This document shows, piece by piece, positions 5,894 to 13,270 of a stretch of DNA of 64,000 bases. Within the stretch, counting starts at the first letter, position 1. Every line of letters starts with the position of its first letter. The DNA is taken from contig OY729428.2 in the NCBI GenBank assembly GCA_963422375.2, positions 128,001 to 192,000 on the forward strand, given 5' to 3'. The notes beneath the pieces were generated by a model. The model made no database searches. It saw only the letters and a program-made list of their open reading frames with translations, and was not told where the DNA came from. The translations under genes and the position numbers were made by a program. The stretch is from Bryobacterales bacterium (GTDB lineage Bacteria > Acidobacteriota > Terriglobia > Bryobacterales > UBA6623).

Positions 5894-7547
5894 GTGCCTG
5901 GACTGCGCCGACTGCCGGAGGCCTCGACGCAAAGAGGTACCGCATGCGCCGTCGGTCTCGCGAGATGCCTGATCGGCACCTCGCTGGCATCCGCGCTGCC
6001 GGGCGCGGCGGCCCGGGCCGCGTTCCGCTTGCAACGCGCGGAGCTGGTCGCCCGTCGGTTCGGGCAATTCGTGGCTCCGCCGACCGATGCGTCGGGGCTG
6101 GCTCACGCCTTCAACGAGTTCGGCATCGTCTGGCTGTCCGGCACCGCCGCCCTCGCCTGCGCGGGCCTCTTGGCACTTGTCGCACCGGTGCCAGCCCCCG
6201 ACCCGGAGGTGGGTCTCTCCCCGCAGGAGCTGGCGGAGCAATCCACCGCCGCATCCCTGGCGGGCGCTCACCAGGCCGGCGCGGCGATACGGACCACAGC
6301 CGAGGGTCGGCGCCGGGCCGCTGCTGGCTATGCGGCTCGCGTGGGGAAAGCCCCGATCCCGCGCCATGGCCTGGCGCTGACTCGCTACGCCGTAGGCAAG
6401 TTCGCGCGATCCCCGCTGAGAGCCGCTGCGTCGAGGATCGCCTGCGAGCAGGTACGCTACGCGCTCTCAGGGGCGCTCGGCGACGAGGGGGCTTACCTGT
6501 CCCCTCTGGTTCGCGACGCCGAGGGCGGGAATTGGATCGAGGGCCTTGCGCCGGATTGCGAGGACCGCGTACCCGCCAGCGAGGGGCGATTCCTTCCATT
6601 TCCCCGCCGCCCGGCCCCGCCCTACCTCAAGGGAATCTCGTTCTCGCGCGAGGGCCGGGGCGACAGGGGATACGGCAGCGCGGTCGCCTGCCGGCGAGCC
6701 GCGGAGGATTCGTGGAATCGGGGCCACCGTCGTCGCCCTCGTGCCGTACGCCTTCACGCGGGCTCCGGACGAGACACACATTTGTATCCAGACGCTCGAG
6801 ACCGATGCGCGTCTCGCGCGGGCCGCCCGCCAAGCCCGGGACCTAGGCCTGCGCGTCATGCTCAAGCCGCACATCTGGGCGGGCCGCAGATTCCACGGCC
6901 CCGTTTCCCGCCACAGCGCGGCTCGCTTCGAGACCTGGCTCGACGACGACCGCCGCTGGATGCTGCATGATGCCCGCCTCTCCCAGACTGACGGCATCGA
7001 CGTGCTGGCCGTCGGCAGCGAACTGGCTGGCCTGACGCTCCGCGAGGACGCCGGGCGGCAGCGGATTCGGCGGGTGCGCGCCGTGTACCGCGGTCCGCTG
7101 GCCCACGCCGCCCACCGGGGAGAGGTACTCGAGCGGATCCGCTTCTGAGACGAGCTGGACTACATCGGCGTCAACTTCCGCTTCCCGATCGCCGCTCCCG
7201 GAGCCGAGCCTAGGCTGGACTCGCCGGAAGTCGCGGCGGCCTCCCGCGCCATCGAGGGAGTGCGGGAGCGCTTCCCCAGGCCTGTCCTGTTCACGGAGGT
7301 CGGATTCCCGGCTCCGGCGACCGCGGCCGCGCGTCCGTGGGAGAAGAGCGGCAGCGCGCTGGACGCGGGCCTCCAAGCGCGCTGCTTCGACGAATGGCTG
7401 GAGCGATTCGCCCGCGTGCTCGACGTGCGCGGAATGTTCTGGTGGAAGTTTCCCAGCCACGGGCGGGGCGGCCCATTCGACCCGTCGCACCGCCCTCTCG
7501 CCAAGCCGGCGATGGCAGAGCCGCGGGACTGGTTCGCAACGCCGTGA
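5894..7547 (+). pseudogene. Disrupted glycoside hydrolase family 113-like gene
   Basis: Pieces YLKGISFSREG / VALVPYAF..GLRVMLKPHIW..AVGSEL / FTEVGF..RPWE..GMFWWK; frameshift near 6690-6720 and in-frame TGA at 7146-7148 (RIRF*DELDYIGV, a Trp position). Confidence 0.7.
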
Positions 7548-7575
7548 GGCCTTCCGCCGGTGCGCGCAGCCCGGC

Positions 7576-9171
7576 TCAGTCGTAGTACTCCAGACCTAGG
7601 TGCGTGATCATCTGCTCGCCCGCCATCCACCGGAGCGTGTTCTTCAGCTTCGTCAGCTGGATGAAGATATCGTGCTCGGGATACAGCTGCGGAGGAACCA
7701 TGGGCGACTTGAAGTAGAACGAGAGCCACTCCTGGATGCCGGCCATGCCTGCGCGCTGGGCCAGGTCGAGGAAGAGGGCGAGGTCCAGCGCCAGGGGCGC
7801 CGCGAGGATCGAGTCGCGGCAGAGGAAATTGACCTTCAGCTGCATCGGGTAGCCCAGCCAGCCCGTGATGTCGATGTTGTCCCAGCCCTCCTTGTTGTCG
7901 CCCCGCGGCGGGTAGTAGTTGATGCGCACCATGTGGGCGAGATCCCGGTAGAGCTCAGGGTACTGGTCCGGCTGCAGGATCACCTCGAGGGCGCCAAGCT
8001 TGCTCTCTTCCTTGGTCTTGAACGATTCCGGCTCGTCCAGCACCACGCCGTCGCGGTTACCCAGGATATTGGTCGAGAACCATCCCTCGACCCCGAGCAG
8101 GCGGGCCTTCAGCCCCGGGGCGATCAGGGTCTTGATGTAGGTCTGGCCTGTCTTGAAGTCCTTGCCGCAGACGGGCACCCCACGGTCCTTGGCGAGCTGC
8201 TGCATCGCGGGCACGTCGACGGTCAGGTTGGGAGCGCCGTTGGCGAACGGCACGCCGCACTGCAGCGCCGCCCATGCGTAGATCTGCGACGGCGCGATGG
8301 CCGGGTCGTCGGCGAGCAGACCGGTCTCGAAGGCTTCCGTTGACGCATGCACCTCGGTCGCCCGCTGGTGGATCTCGGTGGACCCGCACCAGACCATGAC
8401 GGCCCTGTCGAGCCCGTTGGCGCTCTTGAAGTCCTCGATGTCGCGGACCAGCGCCTCGGCCAGCGCCATCTTGCTGGTGCCCCGCTTGACGTGCGCGCCG
8501 TCGAGGCGCGGCACGTAGCGTCTCTCGAAGACGCCCGGCATCGCGCGCACGGCGCGCAGCTCCCGCTCCGCCTCCGCCAGCATCGCGGGCTCGATGACAC
8601 CGGCAGCCAGAGCGCTCTCGTAGCAGTCCTGGTCCAGGATGTCCCAGCCGCCGAAGACCAGGCCGGCCGGATCCTGCAGCGGAACGAGCTCGCGGATCAG
8701 GGGGTTGCGCCGGTCCGTGCGCTTGCTGAGGCGGATCCGCCCCATCTGCGTCAGGGAGCCGACCGGCCGTCCACGGCACTTCGCGACCAGCGCCACGCCG
8801 CCGATCAGGGTCGTGGCCACGGACCCGAGGCCCGGCAGCAGCACCCCCAGGCGGCCGTCGGGGGGTGCGATCGCCGGCGCCGCCTTGCGCGAGAGAAAGT
8901 GCTCGGCGAAGCGGGCAGGGTCGCGTTCGACCGTCCGGCCGTTTCCGGCCAGCAGGCGCTCCTGGCGGCTGTCGGCGACGAACAGGCCCCGCTCGATGCA
9001 GTCCCGCAGCTCCCACAAGGGGATTCCGAGCACATCCGAGATCTGCGCGGCGTCGCTGAATTTCAGGTCGCGCTTGCGCTGCACGAGGGCGAGGTAGAGA
9101 TGCTGGTAGCCGATCCGGGTGCTCTCGGCGAGCAGCTTGAGGTTGACGGAGTACGCCGCGTGGTTATCCAT
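7576..9171 (-). CDS. ino1: Myo-inositol-1-phosphate synthase with an N-terminal XRE-like HTH extension of about 100 aa
   Basis: GSLTQMG, FGGWDI, GKDFKTGQT, NILGNRDG, GDNKEGWDNIDI, RDSILAAPL, SFYFKSP; continuous ORF upstream LKLLAESTRIGYQHLY...AAQISDVLGIPLWEL. Confidence 0.9.
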   Translation of the reverse strand: MDNHAAYSVNLKLLAESTRIGYQHLYLALVQRKRDLKFSDAAQISDVLGIPLWELRDCIERGLFVADSRQERLLAGNGRTVERDPARFAEHFLSRKAAPAIAPPDGRLGVLLPGLGSVATTLIGGVALVAKCRGRPVGSLTQMGRIRLSKRTDRRNPLIRELVPLQDPAGLVFGGWDILDQDCYESALAAGVIEPAMLAEAERELRAVRAMPGVFERRYVPRLDGAHVKRGTSKMALAEALVRDIEDFKSANGLDRAVMVWCGSTEIHQRATEVHASTEAFETGLLADDPAIAPSQIYAWAALQCGVPFANGAPNLTVDVPAMQQLAKDRGVPVCGKDFKTGQTYIKTLIAPGLKARLLGVEGWFSTNILGNRDGVVLDEPESFKTKEESKLGALEVILQPDQYPELYRDLAHMVRINYYPPRGDNKEGWDNIDITGWLGYPMQLKVNFLCRDSILAAPLALDLALFLDLAQRAGMAGIQEWLSFYFKSPMVPPQLYPEHDIFIQLTKLKNTLRWMAGEQMITHLGLEYYD

Positions 9172-9177
9172 AGGATA

Positions 9178-9210
9178 ATTATAAGTCATCTTGATTTTCT
9201 GACAGAAAAT
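9178..9210 (-). promoter_or_regulatory. ino1 promoter: perfect -10 TATAAT 6 nt before ATG and palindrome ATTTTCTG-A-CAGAAAAT over the -35 region
   Basis: Minus strand reads ATTTTCTGTCAGAAAATCAAGATGACTTATAATTATCCT-ATG; AT-rich patch in GC-rich DNA; palindrome at 9194-9210. Confidence 0.65.
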
Positions 9211-9400
9211 TTCGGATCCCGTTGGGACGCCGGCAGGCAGCGACCGGACCGGGTCCGCAGGATCTCCCGCAGGCCGGGCGGCCCCCTTGAGGCGCTGTGG
9301 TATCCTTGGGGTGCGGGGCGATTGGGTGCTCCGTGTCCCGCCCCCGGGGACCGGTTCAGGGGGCAATCACCAGAAACGAACAGGAAGAGTCTCGCCCGCT

Positions 9401-9778
9401 ATGGGACACAACATCTTTTTCGGCAATCTGCCGACCTGGGTCACGGCGGACGACATCAAGTCGTGGCTCGAAAGCAGCGATCTCGTCTGCGACGCCGTAC
9501 GCGTCATCCGGGACTTCGAAACTCAGGAATCGAAGGGCTACGCCTTCGTCGAAGCGCCGAACGAAGAGGAGATGCAGGCCATCATCCGTCGCTTCAACCG
9601 CGCGCCGATCGACGACAAGCTCCTCCGGGCCAAGGCGGCCCATCCGAAGGGCGACAAGTCCCAAGCCCAGCGCAGGCCTAGCCGCAGGCGCGGAACCGGG
9701 GGCCCCAGCAAGCCACGCAAGGATGCTCCGGAGAAGCAGGTCGGCGCCTTCGGCGAAGCCCTGCAGAAAGCCCTCTAG
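9401..9778 (+). CDS. RRM (RNP) RNA-binding protein
   Basis: RNP2 IFFGNL and RNP1 KGYAFVE, followed by a basic tail. Confidence 0.85.
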   Translation: MGHNIFFGNLPTWVTADDIKSWLESSDLVCDAVRVIRDFETQESKGYAFVEAPNEEEMQAIIRRFNRAPIDDKLLRAKAAHPKGDKSQAQRRPSRRRGTGGPSKPRKDAPEKQVGAFGEALQKAL

Positions 9779-9802
9779 GCCCGTCGCGACCCGGCCGCCC
9801 GG

Positions 9803-11137
9803 TCAGGCCGCGGGACGCTTGCGGTACTGCGGCGGTGCGTCGGGGCGGTTCGTGCCGTCGCCCTCGTAGCCCGGATGGCGAGGCGGGGCGAGATCCAGCA
9901 CGCGTTCCGTCAGCGGGTCGAAGGACATCATCCGGCCCGAGCGGTACGAGTCGACGCCAAGCTTGATCGCTACCATTACTTGGTAGCCGAAGCGGGCGTC
10001 GAAGATCGGCTTGCCCCGCGTCCGCACGCAACCGATGAAATCCCGCATGTGGGCCGTGCGGGCGGTCTGCTGGTCGCGATTGTCCACCTCGACCCGGACG
10101 AGGTCGGTTCCGGAGCGTCGGCGGAACTCGTCGGCGTGGAGGCGCTCGGGACGGGCCTCGACCACTCCGGGCGAGAGCGAGATCGAGGCGCGCTGGCCGA
10201 AAATGGCGGGGCCGTGCAGGAGGTTCGGAGCCTGCGAGCCGCTCGCCCCGACAAGGTTCACGACCATGTCGCCGTACTCGACGGTCGTCGAGTACGTGTC
10301 GGGCACTTGGCGGTTCGGGAACAGGTAAATGCCGCCGTGCCCGCTCACGCGCTGAGGAAACCGCGGGCCCGCCGCGTACAGCAGCGGGCTGAGGCGGTGG
10401 TATAGAAAGTCCGTCCCGATGCCCCCGGAGAAGTCCCAGTACTTGCGCCAGCGGAAGAACCGCTCCCCGCTGAAGGGCTGGTCCGGCGCGTCGCCCAGAA
10501 AGCGCTTCCAGTCCACGGTGGCCGGGCTTGCCTCCTCGTCGACGTAGTACTGCCAGACGCCGTCGGGGTGGTTCGACGAGTAGCTGGACTGCGCCATAAG
10601 CACGGGCCCCGCGAGGCCCCCGCGCACCATCTCGCGCGCCTCGGCGTACGCCGGGTCGGACACCCACTGGCTGCCGACCTGCAGGACGCGGCCGGTCTCC
10701 TCGACTGTCTCGGCGATCGCGCGAGCCTCGGGAATCGTCCGCGACATCGGCTTCTCGAGATACACGTCCTTGCCGGCGCGCATCGCGTCGATCGCCATCC
10801 TCGCATGCCAATGGTCGGGGGTGGCGATGACCACGGCGTCCACGTCGTCCCGAGCGAGCAGGTCCTCGTACGCGTGATGCACGTCGCGCTCGGCGAGGCC
10901 GGTAAGTTCCCGCGCCCGGAACTTCGCCCGGTCGTAGATGTCGCTGGCCGCCACGACGTCGAGAATTCCGTCCTGCCGCATCATCGGGAGCAGGCGCCGC
11001 TGCAGGTGACGCGTGCCGATGTTTCCGACACCGATGATGCCCACCCTGACGCGGTCGCCGGCCCCCGCTAGCCGCGCGGCAGAAACGGCGGTCGCCGCTC
11101 CCATGAAGACTCGTCTGCTGCTCCCGTCCGAATACAT
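9803..11137 (-). CDS. Gfo/Idh/MocA family oxidoreductase, Tat-like leader
   Basis: SRRVFM, GIIGVGNIG, VIATPDHWH, GKDVYLEKP, FFRWRKYWDFSGG. Confidence 0.9.
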   Translation of the reverse strand: MYSDGSSRRVFMGAATAVSAARLAGAGDRVRVGIIGVGNIGTRHLQRRLLPMMRQDGILDVVAASDIYDRAKFRARELTGLAERDVHHAYEDLLARDDVDAVVIATPDHWHARMAIDAMRAGKDVYLEKPMSRTIPEARAIAETVEETGRVLQVGSQWVSDPAYAEAREMVRGGLAGPVLMAQSSYSSNHPDGVWQYYVDEEASPATVDWKRFLGDAPDQPFSGERFFRWRKYWDFSGGIGTDFLYHRLSPLLYAAGPRFPQRVSGHGGIYLFPNRQVPDTYSTTVEYGDMVVNLVGASGSQAPNLLHGPAIFGQRASISLSPGVVEARPERLHADEFRRRSGTDLVRVEVDNRDQQTARTAHMRDFIGCVRTRGKPIFDARFGYQVMVAIKLGVDSYRSGRMMSFDPLTERVLDLAPPRHPGYEGDGTNRPDAPPQYRKRPAA

Positions 11138-12001: not shown

Positions 12002-13270
12002 CGCCCATTCAACTCCGAAGTGCGACACACGCCGAGCCACAAGATGGCAGGGAGGGGAGAGGGGGGGCAGCGAGCGGTGGTGTCGTGGCAGTAGGCTGGT
12101 AGGTGCTGGAAGGAGCAGGGAGGCAGATGCCGAAGAGCTACACGCACGTGACGCAGGAGGAGCGCTGCCGGAGCGAGACGCTGCGGGCCGCGGGCTGGGG
12201 AGCGGACAGGATCGCCGGGCAGCCGGGCCGCAAGCGGGCCACGATCTACCGCGAAGTGGGCCGCAACGGCCGACCGGCGGAGGGCGAGCGCGCGGCGAGC
12301 TACAGCTGGGGGAGCGCGCAGGAGCGCGCGGAGCGGCGCGCGGCGTCGTGCCGGCCGCGCCAGCTGACGTCGGCGCTGCGGACGCGGAGCGAGGACTGCC
12401 TGCGGCAGGACTGGAGCCCGGAGCAGGAGCCCGGAGCAGGTCGCGGCGCGGCTGCAGCGGGAAGGGGCGCTGGAGATCAGCCCCGAACGGATCTACCAGC
12501 TGGTGCGCGCGGACCGGCGGCAGGGGGGCCGGCTGTACCGGCACCTGAGGCAGGGCGGCCGCAAGCGCGTGCGGCGGGTCGGCCGGACGGCGGGCCGCGG
12601 CCTGATCCCGGGGCGCGCGGACATCGCGGAGCGCCCGGCGGAGGCGCGAGCGAAGGCGCGCGGCGGCGACCGGGAGGCCGACACCGTGATCGGCGGGCAG
12701 CGCCGCGGGGCGCTGGTGACGCTGGTGGACCGGTTCTCTAAGTACCTGCTAGTGCAGCCGGTTAGCCGGCGCACGGCGCAGCTGGTCGGGGCGGCGATGA
12801 CGGCCATGCTCGCAGGGATGCTCGCAGGGAGCGGGGCCGTGACGCACACGCTCACGGCCGACAACGGCAAGGAGTTCGCGGCAAGGAGTTCGCGGGACAC
12901 CGGGAGGTGGCGCAGCGGCTGGGGGCGGGCTTCTGCTTCGCGCGGCCCTGCCACTCCTGGGAGCGCGGGCTGAACGAGCATGCCAACGGGCTGCCGCGGC
13001 AGTACTTCCCGCAGGGGACGGACCTGCGGCGGGTGGACCCGGCCCGGGTGCGGGAGGCGCGGGACCGCCTGAACCGGCGTCCGCGGAAGGTGCCGGGCGG
13101 GCGCACGCCGGAGGAAGTCTTCCGGGCGGAGCGGGAGCGGGTGCCGCGGGGCTGAGGCAGGGCTGGCAGCCCGCCGCGGGGACAGGGGCGCGGGGGAGCT
13201 GCGCCCGGACAGGCGCGGATTCGACCCGCCTGCCCGGGACGCGGCCCCCCGCTTCGGAGTTGAATGGGCG
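12002..13270 (+). mobile_element. IS30-family element, copy 1 (transposase about 12128-13155, two frameshifts)
   Basis: Terminal IR CGCCCATTCAACTCCGAAG at 12002-12020 and 13252-13270; 3-bp flanking repeat ACG; WSPEQ, EADT, TADNGKEF, SWERGLNEHANG motifs. Confidence 0.9.

Follow-up and report, generated by a model that had tools for sequence, protein, structure and literature searches.

The window, a 64,000-nucleotide stretch of contig OY729428.2 from a Bryobacterales bacterium, carries on its minus strand an open reading frame extending from 9171 to 7576. Its translation of 531 residues includes an N-terminal extension and, at residue 106, a Rossmann start (GRLGVLLPGLGSVATT). The features of the locus are the following.

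7576 to 9171, minus strand: helix-turn-helix (HTH)-Ino1 fusion gene, 531 amino acids plus stop.
7579 to 8859, minus strand: inositol-3-phosphate synthase (MIPS/Ino1) of the BT_1526-like subtype (PF07994, PF01658; match to 7nwr).
8860 to 8928, minus strand: variable linker, residues 82-104 (pLDDT below 50; dN/dS 0.35 for residues 77-104).
8929 to 8985, minus strand: beta-strand extension with a near-invariant FxADSRQ motif, residues 63-81 (strands 64-66, 74-76 and 79-81).
8986 to 9159, minus strand: XRE/lambda-repressor-like domain, residues 5-62, assigned from the predicted fold, structural matches, HTH_26 matches of relatives and a profile link to HTH_3.
9082 to 9108, minus strand: predicted recognition helix YQHLYLALV, residues 22-30, placed by its position in the XRE fold.
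9163 to 9179: putative operator O2, ATTATC-CTATG-GATAAC, at -8 to +9, spanning the start codon at a distance of 31 bp from O1.
9178 to 9205, minus strand: predicted sigma-70-type promoter, CTGTCA-16-TATAAT.
9194 to 9210: putative operator O1, ATTTTC-N5-GAAAAT (consensus ATTATC-N5-GATAAT), at -39 to -23 from the ATG, enclosing a -35-like hexamer.

An earlier reading of the sequence alone (the sequence-only reading) had proposed that an inositol-3-phosphate synthase is fused here to an XRE-like HTH, and the 531-residue frame does contain both the Pfam MIPS domains (PF07994 plus PF01658, residues 108-514) and a predicted HTH fold. The host-like codon bias claimed for the extension of about 100 codons was confirmed by a GC3 of 0.91 for codons 1-100 versus 0.92 for codons 101-531. 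In-frame ATG, GTG or TTG triplets occur at codons 1, 30, 47 and 52 and next at codon 110, in agreement with the reported lack of start codons over the roughly 50 codons preceding the enzyme. Contigs from a run of a second study covered positions 7300-9719 with no differing letters or gaps, and one of them (8669-9719) bridged the promoter, the HTH and the start of the enzyme. Since this run matches letter for letter, the fusion is not an assembly error. The gene has 531 codons and no indels in all 14 genus-level loci (the window and 13 others), for which dN/dS was 0.14 for residues 7-62, 0.24 for residues 63-76, 0.35 for residues 77-104, 0.18 for residues 105-335 and 0.05 for residues 336-531. 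Purifying selection on the head thus equals in strength that on the Rossmann part (residues 105-335). The constant length of the 13 other loci and the dN/dS of residues 7-62 show that the open frame of the extension is not due to chance. Fusion of an XRE-type HTH to Ino1 in one conserved polypeptide is therefore genuine.

Several neighboring features were recorded. A GH113 glycoside hydrolase gene (6546-7547, plus strand), convergent on ino1, contains an in-frame TGA at 7146-7148 and is probably a pseudogene; both halves match PF22612, and a homologous frame adjoins the locus of one relative (L067). An IS30-like transposase (12103-13155, plus strand) lies in two frames as HTH_38 and rve pieces. 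A divergent gene (9401-9778, plus strand), about 190 bp from O1, encodes an RNA-binding protein with an RRM domain (PF00076). Since it adjoins the fused gene in only 5 of 21 mapped fused loci, an operator target is unlikely here. Near-identical contigs of a run presumed to be RNA covered this gene; three runs so presumed gave no near-identical contig on ino1, which is no evidence either way on expression.

The enzyme part scored 290 bits with PF07994 and 107 bits with PF01658, against curated cut-offs of 25 and 27. The nearest solved structure was that of BT_1526 (PDB 7nwr; E 2.8e-146, 51% identity), the alignment starting at residue 100. N368, K391 and K488 align with N255, K278 and K367 of the Archaeoglobus fulgidus enzyme, the residues mutated in 3qw2, 3qvw and 3qvx. 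All 49 fused rows, a set with some redundancy, retain G114, G116, D338, K387, K427 and D453, and 48 of the 49 retain D374 and K391. The intact active site and the identity to BT_1526 suggest that the C-terminal part converts glucose-6-phosphate to inositol-3-phosphate in an NAD+-dependent manner. With these residues intact, the protein is no inactive enzyme recruited as a sensor. BT_1526 of Bacteroides thetaiotaomicron is an NAD-dependent tetrameric MIPS of demonstrated activity (PMC9246714). It lacks an HTH, and its gene sits in an inositol-lipid cluster (PMC9246714), whereas the fused gene is monocistronic with changing neighbors. Fused and unfused enzymes differ at positions A119, G124, L128, L286, G393, M414 and A517; L286 and A517 stand where the unfused enzymes mostly have polar or basic residues. 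These positions could form a docking surface or just reflect shared ancestry.

The sequence-only reading had recognized the helix pattern of Cro/XRE domains in the extension, and modeling bore this out. AlphaFold predicted for residues 1-97 (mean pLDDT 82) an HTH fold with helices at 11-18, 22-30, 38-48 and 52-61 and short strands, one of which occupies the place of the canonical first helix of the XRE fold. In a VIA-align structural search, the top rows were nearly all XRE-fold chains aligned over residues 5-62 with an rmsd of 1.5-2.9, among them NGO0477 (Z 6.3), P22 c2 (5.7), DdrO (5.6), ImmR (5.6), SinR (5.5) and C.AhdI (5.4); these values are modest, and by the tool's own warning values below 8 may reflect a common arrangement. 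Two Foldseek searches with the head returned no match at E of 0.001 or less. The first 100 residues of the window's own protein matched nothing in Pfam or NCBIfam; the HTH assignment therefore relies on the matches of relatives, the predicted fold and a profile link. HTH_26 was matched weakly, below the curated cut-offs, by 8 of 13 relatives (best E 0.001) and by 4 of 17 in another set. The family head profile aligned with a canonical HTH_3 protein at an hhalign probability of 92.7%, the partner having been picked from a search of 251 genomes. A language-model search pointed to XRE-type clusters (0.88-0.90), as a lead only; PHROGs gave weak matches only for 17 relatives, and a PDB sequence search with the head profile gave nothing relevant. 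We regard the XRE assignment as secure at the level of the predicted fold, which places the recognition helix at residues 22-30.

Within this helix, Y22, L25, Y26 and L27 were invariant in 17 of 17 rows. F64, S68, R69 and Q70 of the adjoining strand region were invariant in 42 of 42 rows, making the FxADSRQ region a candidate dimer or docking surface. The distance from SRQ to the enzyme was 27-35 residues in seven proteins, and no other part of the protein is as poorly conserved as the linker or predicted with so little confidence. For the full-length protein, AlphaFold gave a poor model (pLDDT 52, with residues 336-531 below 50), which is uninformative on domain packing.

The survey of Ino1 homologues for the extension proposed with the original claim found it conserved in the 13 other genus loci and in part of one Bryobacterales family. 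A whole-protein search matched 31 of 41 genomes; the 13 other members of the genus aligned from residue 5 or earlier, and two other Bryobacterales families only from residues 73-100. The head profile matched 29 of 77 genomes of the family, in 6 of 12 genera, and a MIPS match above the cut-off was found in 57 of these 77 genomes. Outside the family, the profile gave one marginal match (E 9e-4) among 400 genomes of the phylum and one match, to an ordinary stand-alone XRE protein, in 174 further genomes of the order. A scan of a genome collection with the head returned 24 loci, all with Bryobacterales or Acidobacteriia in their titles, including one of UBA6623, and two members of a protein cluster bear the name Bryobacterales inositol-3-phosphate synthase. 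A MIPS domain was present in 31 of the 32 longer proteins retrieved by the head profile, the remaining one being an interrupted copy of 136 residues. As stand-alone relatives, the head has four short proteins of 88-105 residues and one out-of-frame piece, which appear to be truncated or frameshifted copies. A search of viral contigs found no relative of the head, and there was none among the 15 listed of 56 plasmid records. One contig of 72.7 kb in the viral collection (L209) encodes a MIPS that shares 55% identity with the enzyme domain and lacks a long N-terminal frame.

In the best 80 of 595 metagenome MIPS loci, no HTH extension was recognizable by eye; 10 of these 80 had at least 55 open codons upstream. 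A protein library clustered at 50% identity missed even full-length fused proteins and is uninformative on the absence of other fusions. A 533-codon frame in genome G077, considered as a further fusion, was rejected for lack of an HTH. The nearest Atlas look-alike of the fused protein (0.95; next 0.85) was a 506-residue MIPS cluster whose commonest phylum is Chloroflexota. The head profile retrieved no protein of about 506 residues and no record outside Acidobacteriota.

In a tree of the enzyme domain only (56 rows), a single branch with support of 100/97 divided 25 fused from 31 unfused sequences. The tree, from which two incomplete copies, two pseudogenes and five duplicate fetches were excluded, was midpoint-rooted only; it is compatible with a single origin of the Bryobacterales fusion, which the rooting does not prove. 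A fused gene of the g1 type, preceded by the same operators, occurs in genera g18, g22 and g26 (L068, L069 and L070), and the three remaining g26 genomes have the unfused form; transfer and replacement may account for this. Decay of ino1 by deletions, frameshifts and insertions is recurrent in the family (L066, L067, L073, L222, L223 and L224), and 11 of 30 genomes of the genus had no MIPS match. The pseudogene loci L067 and L222 retain a strong O1, and genome G001 has one intact and one interrupted copy. Genome G061 contains three near-identical unfused ino1 copies (L092, L093 and L094) that have about 200 bp of upstream DNA in common and different neighbors.

An AT-rich block lies upstream of all 14 genus loci. 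A search for the most symmetric upstream feature, with no consensus assumed, identified a 6-5-6 palindrome at -39 to -23 with a mean arm symmetry of 4.71 out of 6 over the 14 loci, a measure that did not exceed 3.14 in any of 200 shuffles. Conservation is seen in the arms, the 5-bp spacer being free; in the window, O1 departs from the consensus symmetrically in both arms. The palindrome claimed at 9194-9210 is a perfect, conserved 17-bp dyad, operator-like at the gene's own promoter. An operator matrix trained on the 14 genus O1 sites, that of the window included, gave the window's O2 a score of 15.1 even though it was trained on O1 only, and O1 and O2 form the only strong pair at a distance of 31 bp in the window's genome. 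O2 scores ranged from -5.6 to 16.9 and were weak in several loci. Since O2 overlaps the -10 hexamer and codon 2, part of its conservation has other causes.

A promoter pattern search of positions 7300-9900 found one site versus 0.1 expected. The motif TAnnnT occupies -12 to -7 in 13 of 14 genus loci, the remaining one having CATCAT. Six bases lie between the -10 hexamer and the ATG, and upstream of the start in the genus loci there is no Shine-Dalgarno-like run; these two observations predict a leaderless mRNA, and the transcript of the fused gene is probably of this type. As regards the promoter sites, the sequence-only reading had correctly located O1 and had overlooked the further site that spans the start codon, as well as the leaderless layout.

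The association of the site with the fusion was examined with the same matrix. In the six close loci outside the training set, the best site fell exactly at -39, and the tandem arrangement was significant (p at most 0.002 versus block shuffles). All 20 close fused loci, of which 14 had served for training, and 2 of 7 divergent fused loci reached a score of at least 13. None of the 31 unfused genome loci, which include 20 loci of the same family, and none of the 65 usable among 80 unfused metagenome loci reached this score. A looser palindrome rule was satisfied by 23 of 27 fused and 2 of 31 unfused genome loci, yet also by 12 of the 65 unfused metagenome loci. In the divergent genera g19 and g27, site pairs lie 31-33 bp apart (p < 0.005 in 3 of 7 loci, 0.04 in one and 0.058-0.148 in three). 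Flanking genes vary widely among the fused loci and the site persists, indicating that it belongs to the fused gene. Half-site positions 4-5 are AT in 33-34 of 40 half-sites, versus T/G and A in 21-23 of 28 in the divergent clade, and the recognition helix changes from YQxLYL to YHHLYL (YHHLYLS) in the clade with the shifted half-sites. Because the fused loci are all kin, the co-occurrence of site and fusion and the joint shift of helix and operator each amount to one evolutionary event.

Six sites scoring at least 15 were found in the 6-Mb genome of the window, two of them being O1 and O2. Five relatives had 1-5 sites each at no more than one mismatch, versus 0-3 for a control pattern, and no wider regulon was found in the window's genome or in these relatives. 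The top genome matches besides O1 and O2 lay beside transposase-like frames, inside frames or in unexplained gaps. There was no good site within 4 kb of four CDP-alcohol phosphotransferase genes (best score, 8.1), and no listed top match near two inositol monophosphatase genes. A repeat of about 45 bp, present in at least 18 copies in this genome, reaches a matrix score of about 13; resembling the end of an insertion sequence, it was disregarded.

Taken together, the predicted fold and the tandem sites make it likely that the fused protein is a bifunctional enzyme and autorepressor with a single target. The N-terminal XRE heads would bind as pairs to the two 17-bp dyads, whose halves lie one turn apart. 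Occupation of O1, over the -35 region, and of O2, over the start of transcription and translation, would block RNA polymerase at the gene's own promoter. DNA binding, repression and the leaderless mRNA, all of which we infer, would combine into a one-gene negative feedback loop, setting a ceiling on the amount of the enzyme that limits the rate of inositol synthesis. Since MIPS enzymes form tetramers (PMC9246714; PMC11348189), one molecule carries four heads. Three helical turns separate the two dyads, placing them on one side of the DNA, and one tetramer might therefore occupy both.

Control of DNA binding by a ligand (NAD, glucose-6-phosphate or inositol phosphate) is conceivable, at somewhat less than even chances. 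A fungal MIPS shows an order-disorder change at the active site (PMC11348189), which by analogy could be coupled to DNA binding. The enzyme positions specific to the fused clade are at most an indirect hint of ligand control. The variable length and poor prediction of the linker count against tight coupling of enzyme and head. The fuller version, in which the Ino1 tetramer is itself the sensor, its four heads clamping both operators and the open or closed state of the active site (set by NAD+, glucose-6-phosphate or inositol phosphate) determining binding, appears doubtful to us.

The arrangement resembles that of C.PvuII, which has the XRE fold, two unequal operators at its own promoter and autogenous control (PMC2175313). 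The fused protein might accordingly act as an activator-repressor switch, a strong O1 stimulating a weak promoter and a weaker O2 repressing once filled at higher protein levels. The fold is common to C.AhdI, C.BclI and C.Esp1396I, at most loci O1 comes nearer the consensus than O2 does, most close loci have a poor -35 hexamer, and C.PvuII does operate by activation followed by repression (PMC2175313). C proteins such as C.PvuII are small and stand-alone, with operators 4 nt apart and upstream activation (PMC2175313), whereas the two sites of the fused gene lie to either side of the -10 hexamer, with 14 bp between their facing edges. The C-protein layout, with an activating site upstream of the -35 and a repressing site over it, was not found: O1 encloses the -35-like hexamer rather than lying upstream, O2 covers the start, and in the PvuII system it is the -35-overlapping operator that represses (PMC2175313). 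Genus g19 has a canonical -35/-10 promoter, its upstream site overlapping the -10 and the second lying 33 bp downstream in the leader, so that neither site lies upstream of the -10; this predicted placement is the geometry of a repressor. We consider a switch of the C-protein type unlikely.

The head might instead be structural, serving oligomerization or stabilization, with the palindromes bound by a separate regulator. Similar XRE-like domains of HppE, HEPD/MPnS and cyanase are structural. These proteins are among the structural matches of the head (6b9r, 6b9s, 1zz6, 5uk3 and 6xgt), and the GATAAT half-site resembles the Fur-box hexamer, although the arm orientation and spacer differ from those of a Fur box. 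The N-terminal extension of eukaryotic MIPS stabilizes the oligomer (PMC9246714). Against a separate regulator stand the absence of the site from unfused orthologues, same-family loci included, the half-site shift that accompanies the change of recognition helix, and the genome-wide rarity of the site, which is unlike the binding site of a global regulator. We judge this explanation to be unlikely as well. That the extension is a neutral or untranslated remnant, with translation beginning at the enzyme domain, might be suggested by the broken copies in several relatives but is close to refuted by the selection data: the head evolves under constraint without indels, codon 1 is ATG or GTG in 13 of 14 loci, a check for downstream starts found none conserved across loci (L017 has none at all between codons 73 and 125), and in the broken genes the enzyme part is broken too.

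The preferred reading, that of an enzyme and autorepressor, has precedents. The DNA-binding head of NadR is of the XRE type. Fusions of an enzyme with a DNA-binding domain include BirA, NadR, PutA and archaeal RbkR, and ligand control, by CTP and FMN, has been demonstrated for RbkR (PMC5397151). The HTH-Ino1 fusion would be a new member of this class of enzyme-repressors. Its likeness to trigger enzymes lies in a DNA-binding domain and an enzyme combined in one conserved polypeptide, with a predicted operator at its own gene tied to the fused form. Regulators of ino1 in Actinobacteria had been said to be separate proteins, which is correct for IpsA (LacI family) and for the PadR-like gene beside mycobacterial ino1 (PMC3899939). 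IpsA controls ino1 transcription through two promoter sites, as proposed here, with myo-inositol as the effector; it differs in being an activator, and both regulators belong to other families (PMC3899939). No description of an HTH-Ino1 fusion was found in the literature searched, which lay mostly outside subscription journals, in keeping with the original statement that none was known.

In the literature found, bacterial regulation of de novo inositol synthesis is described in Actinobacteria (IpsA). The locus described here would represent a one-gene circuit in Acidobacteriota, with enzyme, repressor, promoter and two operators in less than 1.7 kb, that is testable in E. coli. The few enzyme-repressors described would thereby gain a sugar-phosphate enzyme. 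Should ligand control prove true, the protein would be a natural sensor for the flux of inositol phosphate or glucose-6-phosphate, and should the tetramer itself be the sensor, it would serve a sugar-phosphate pathway as its trigger enzyme.
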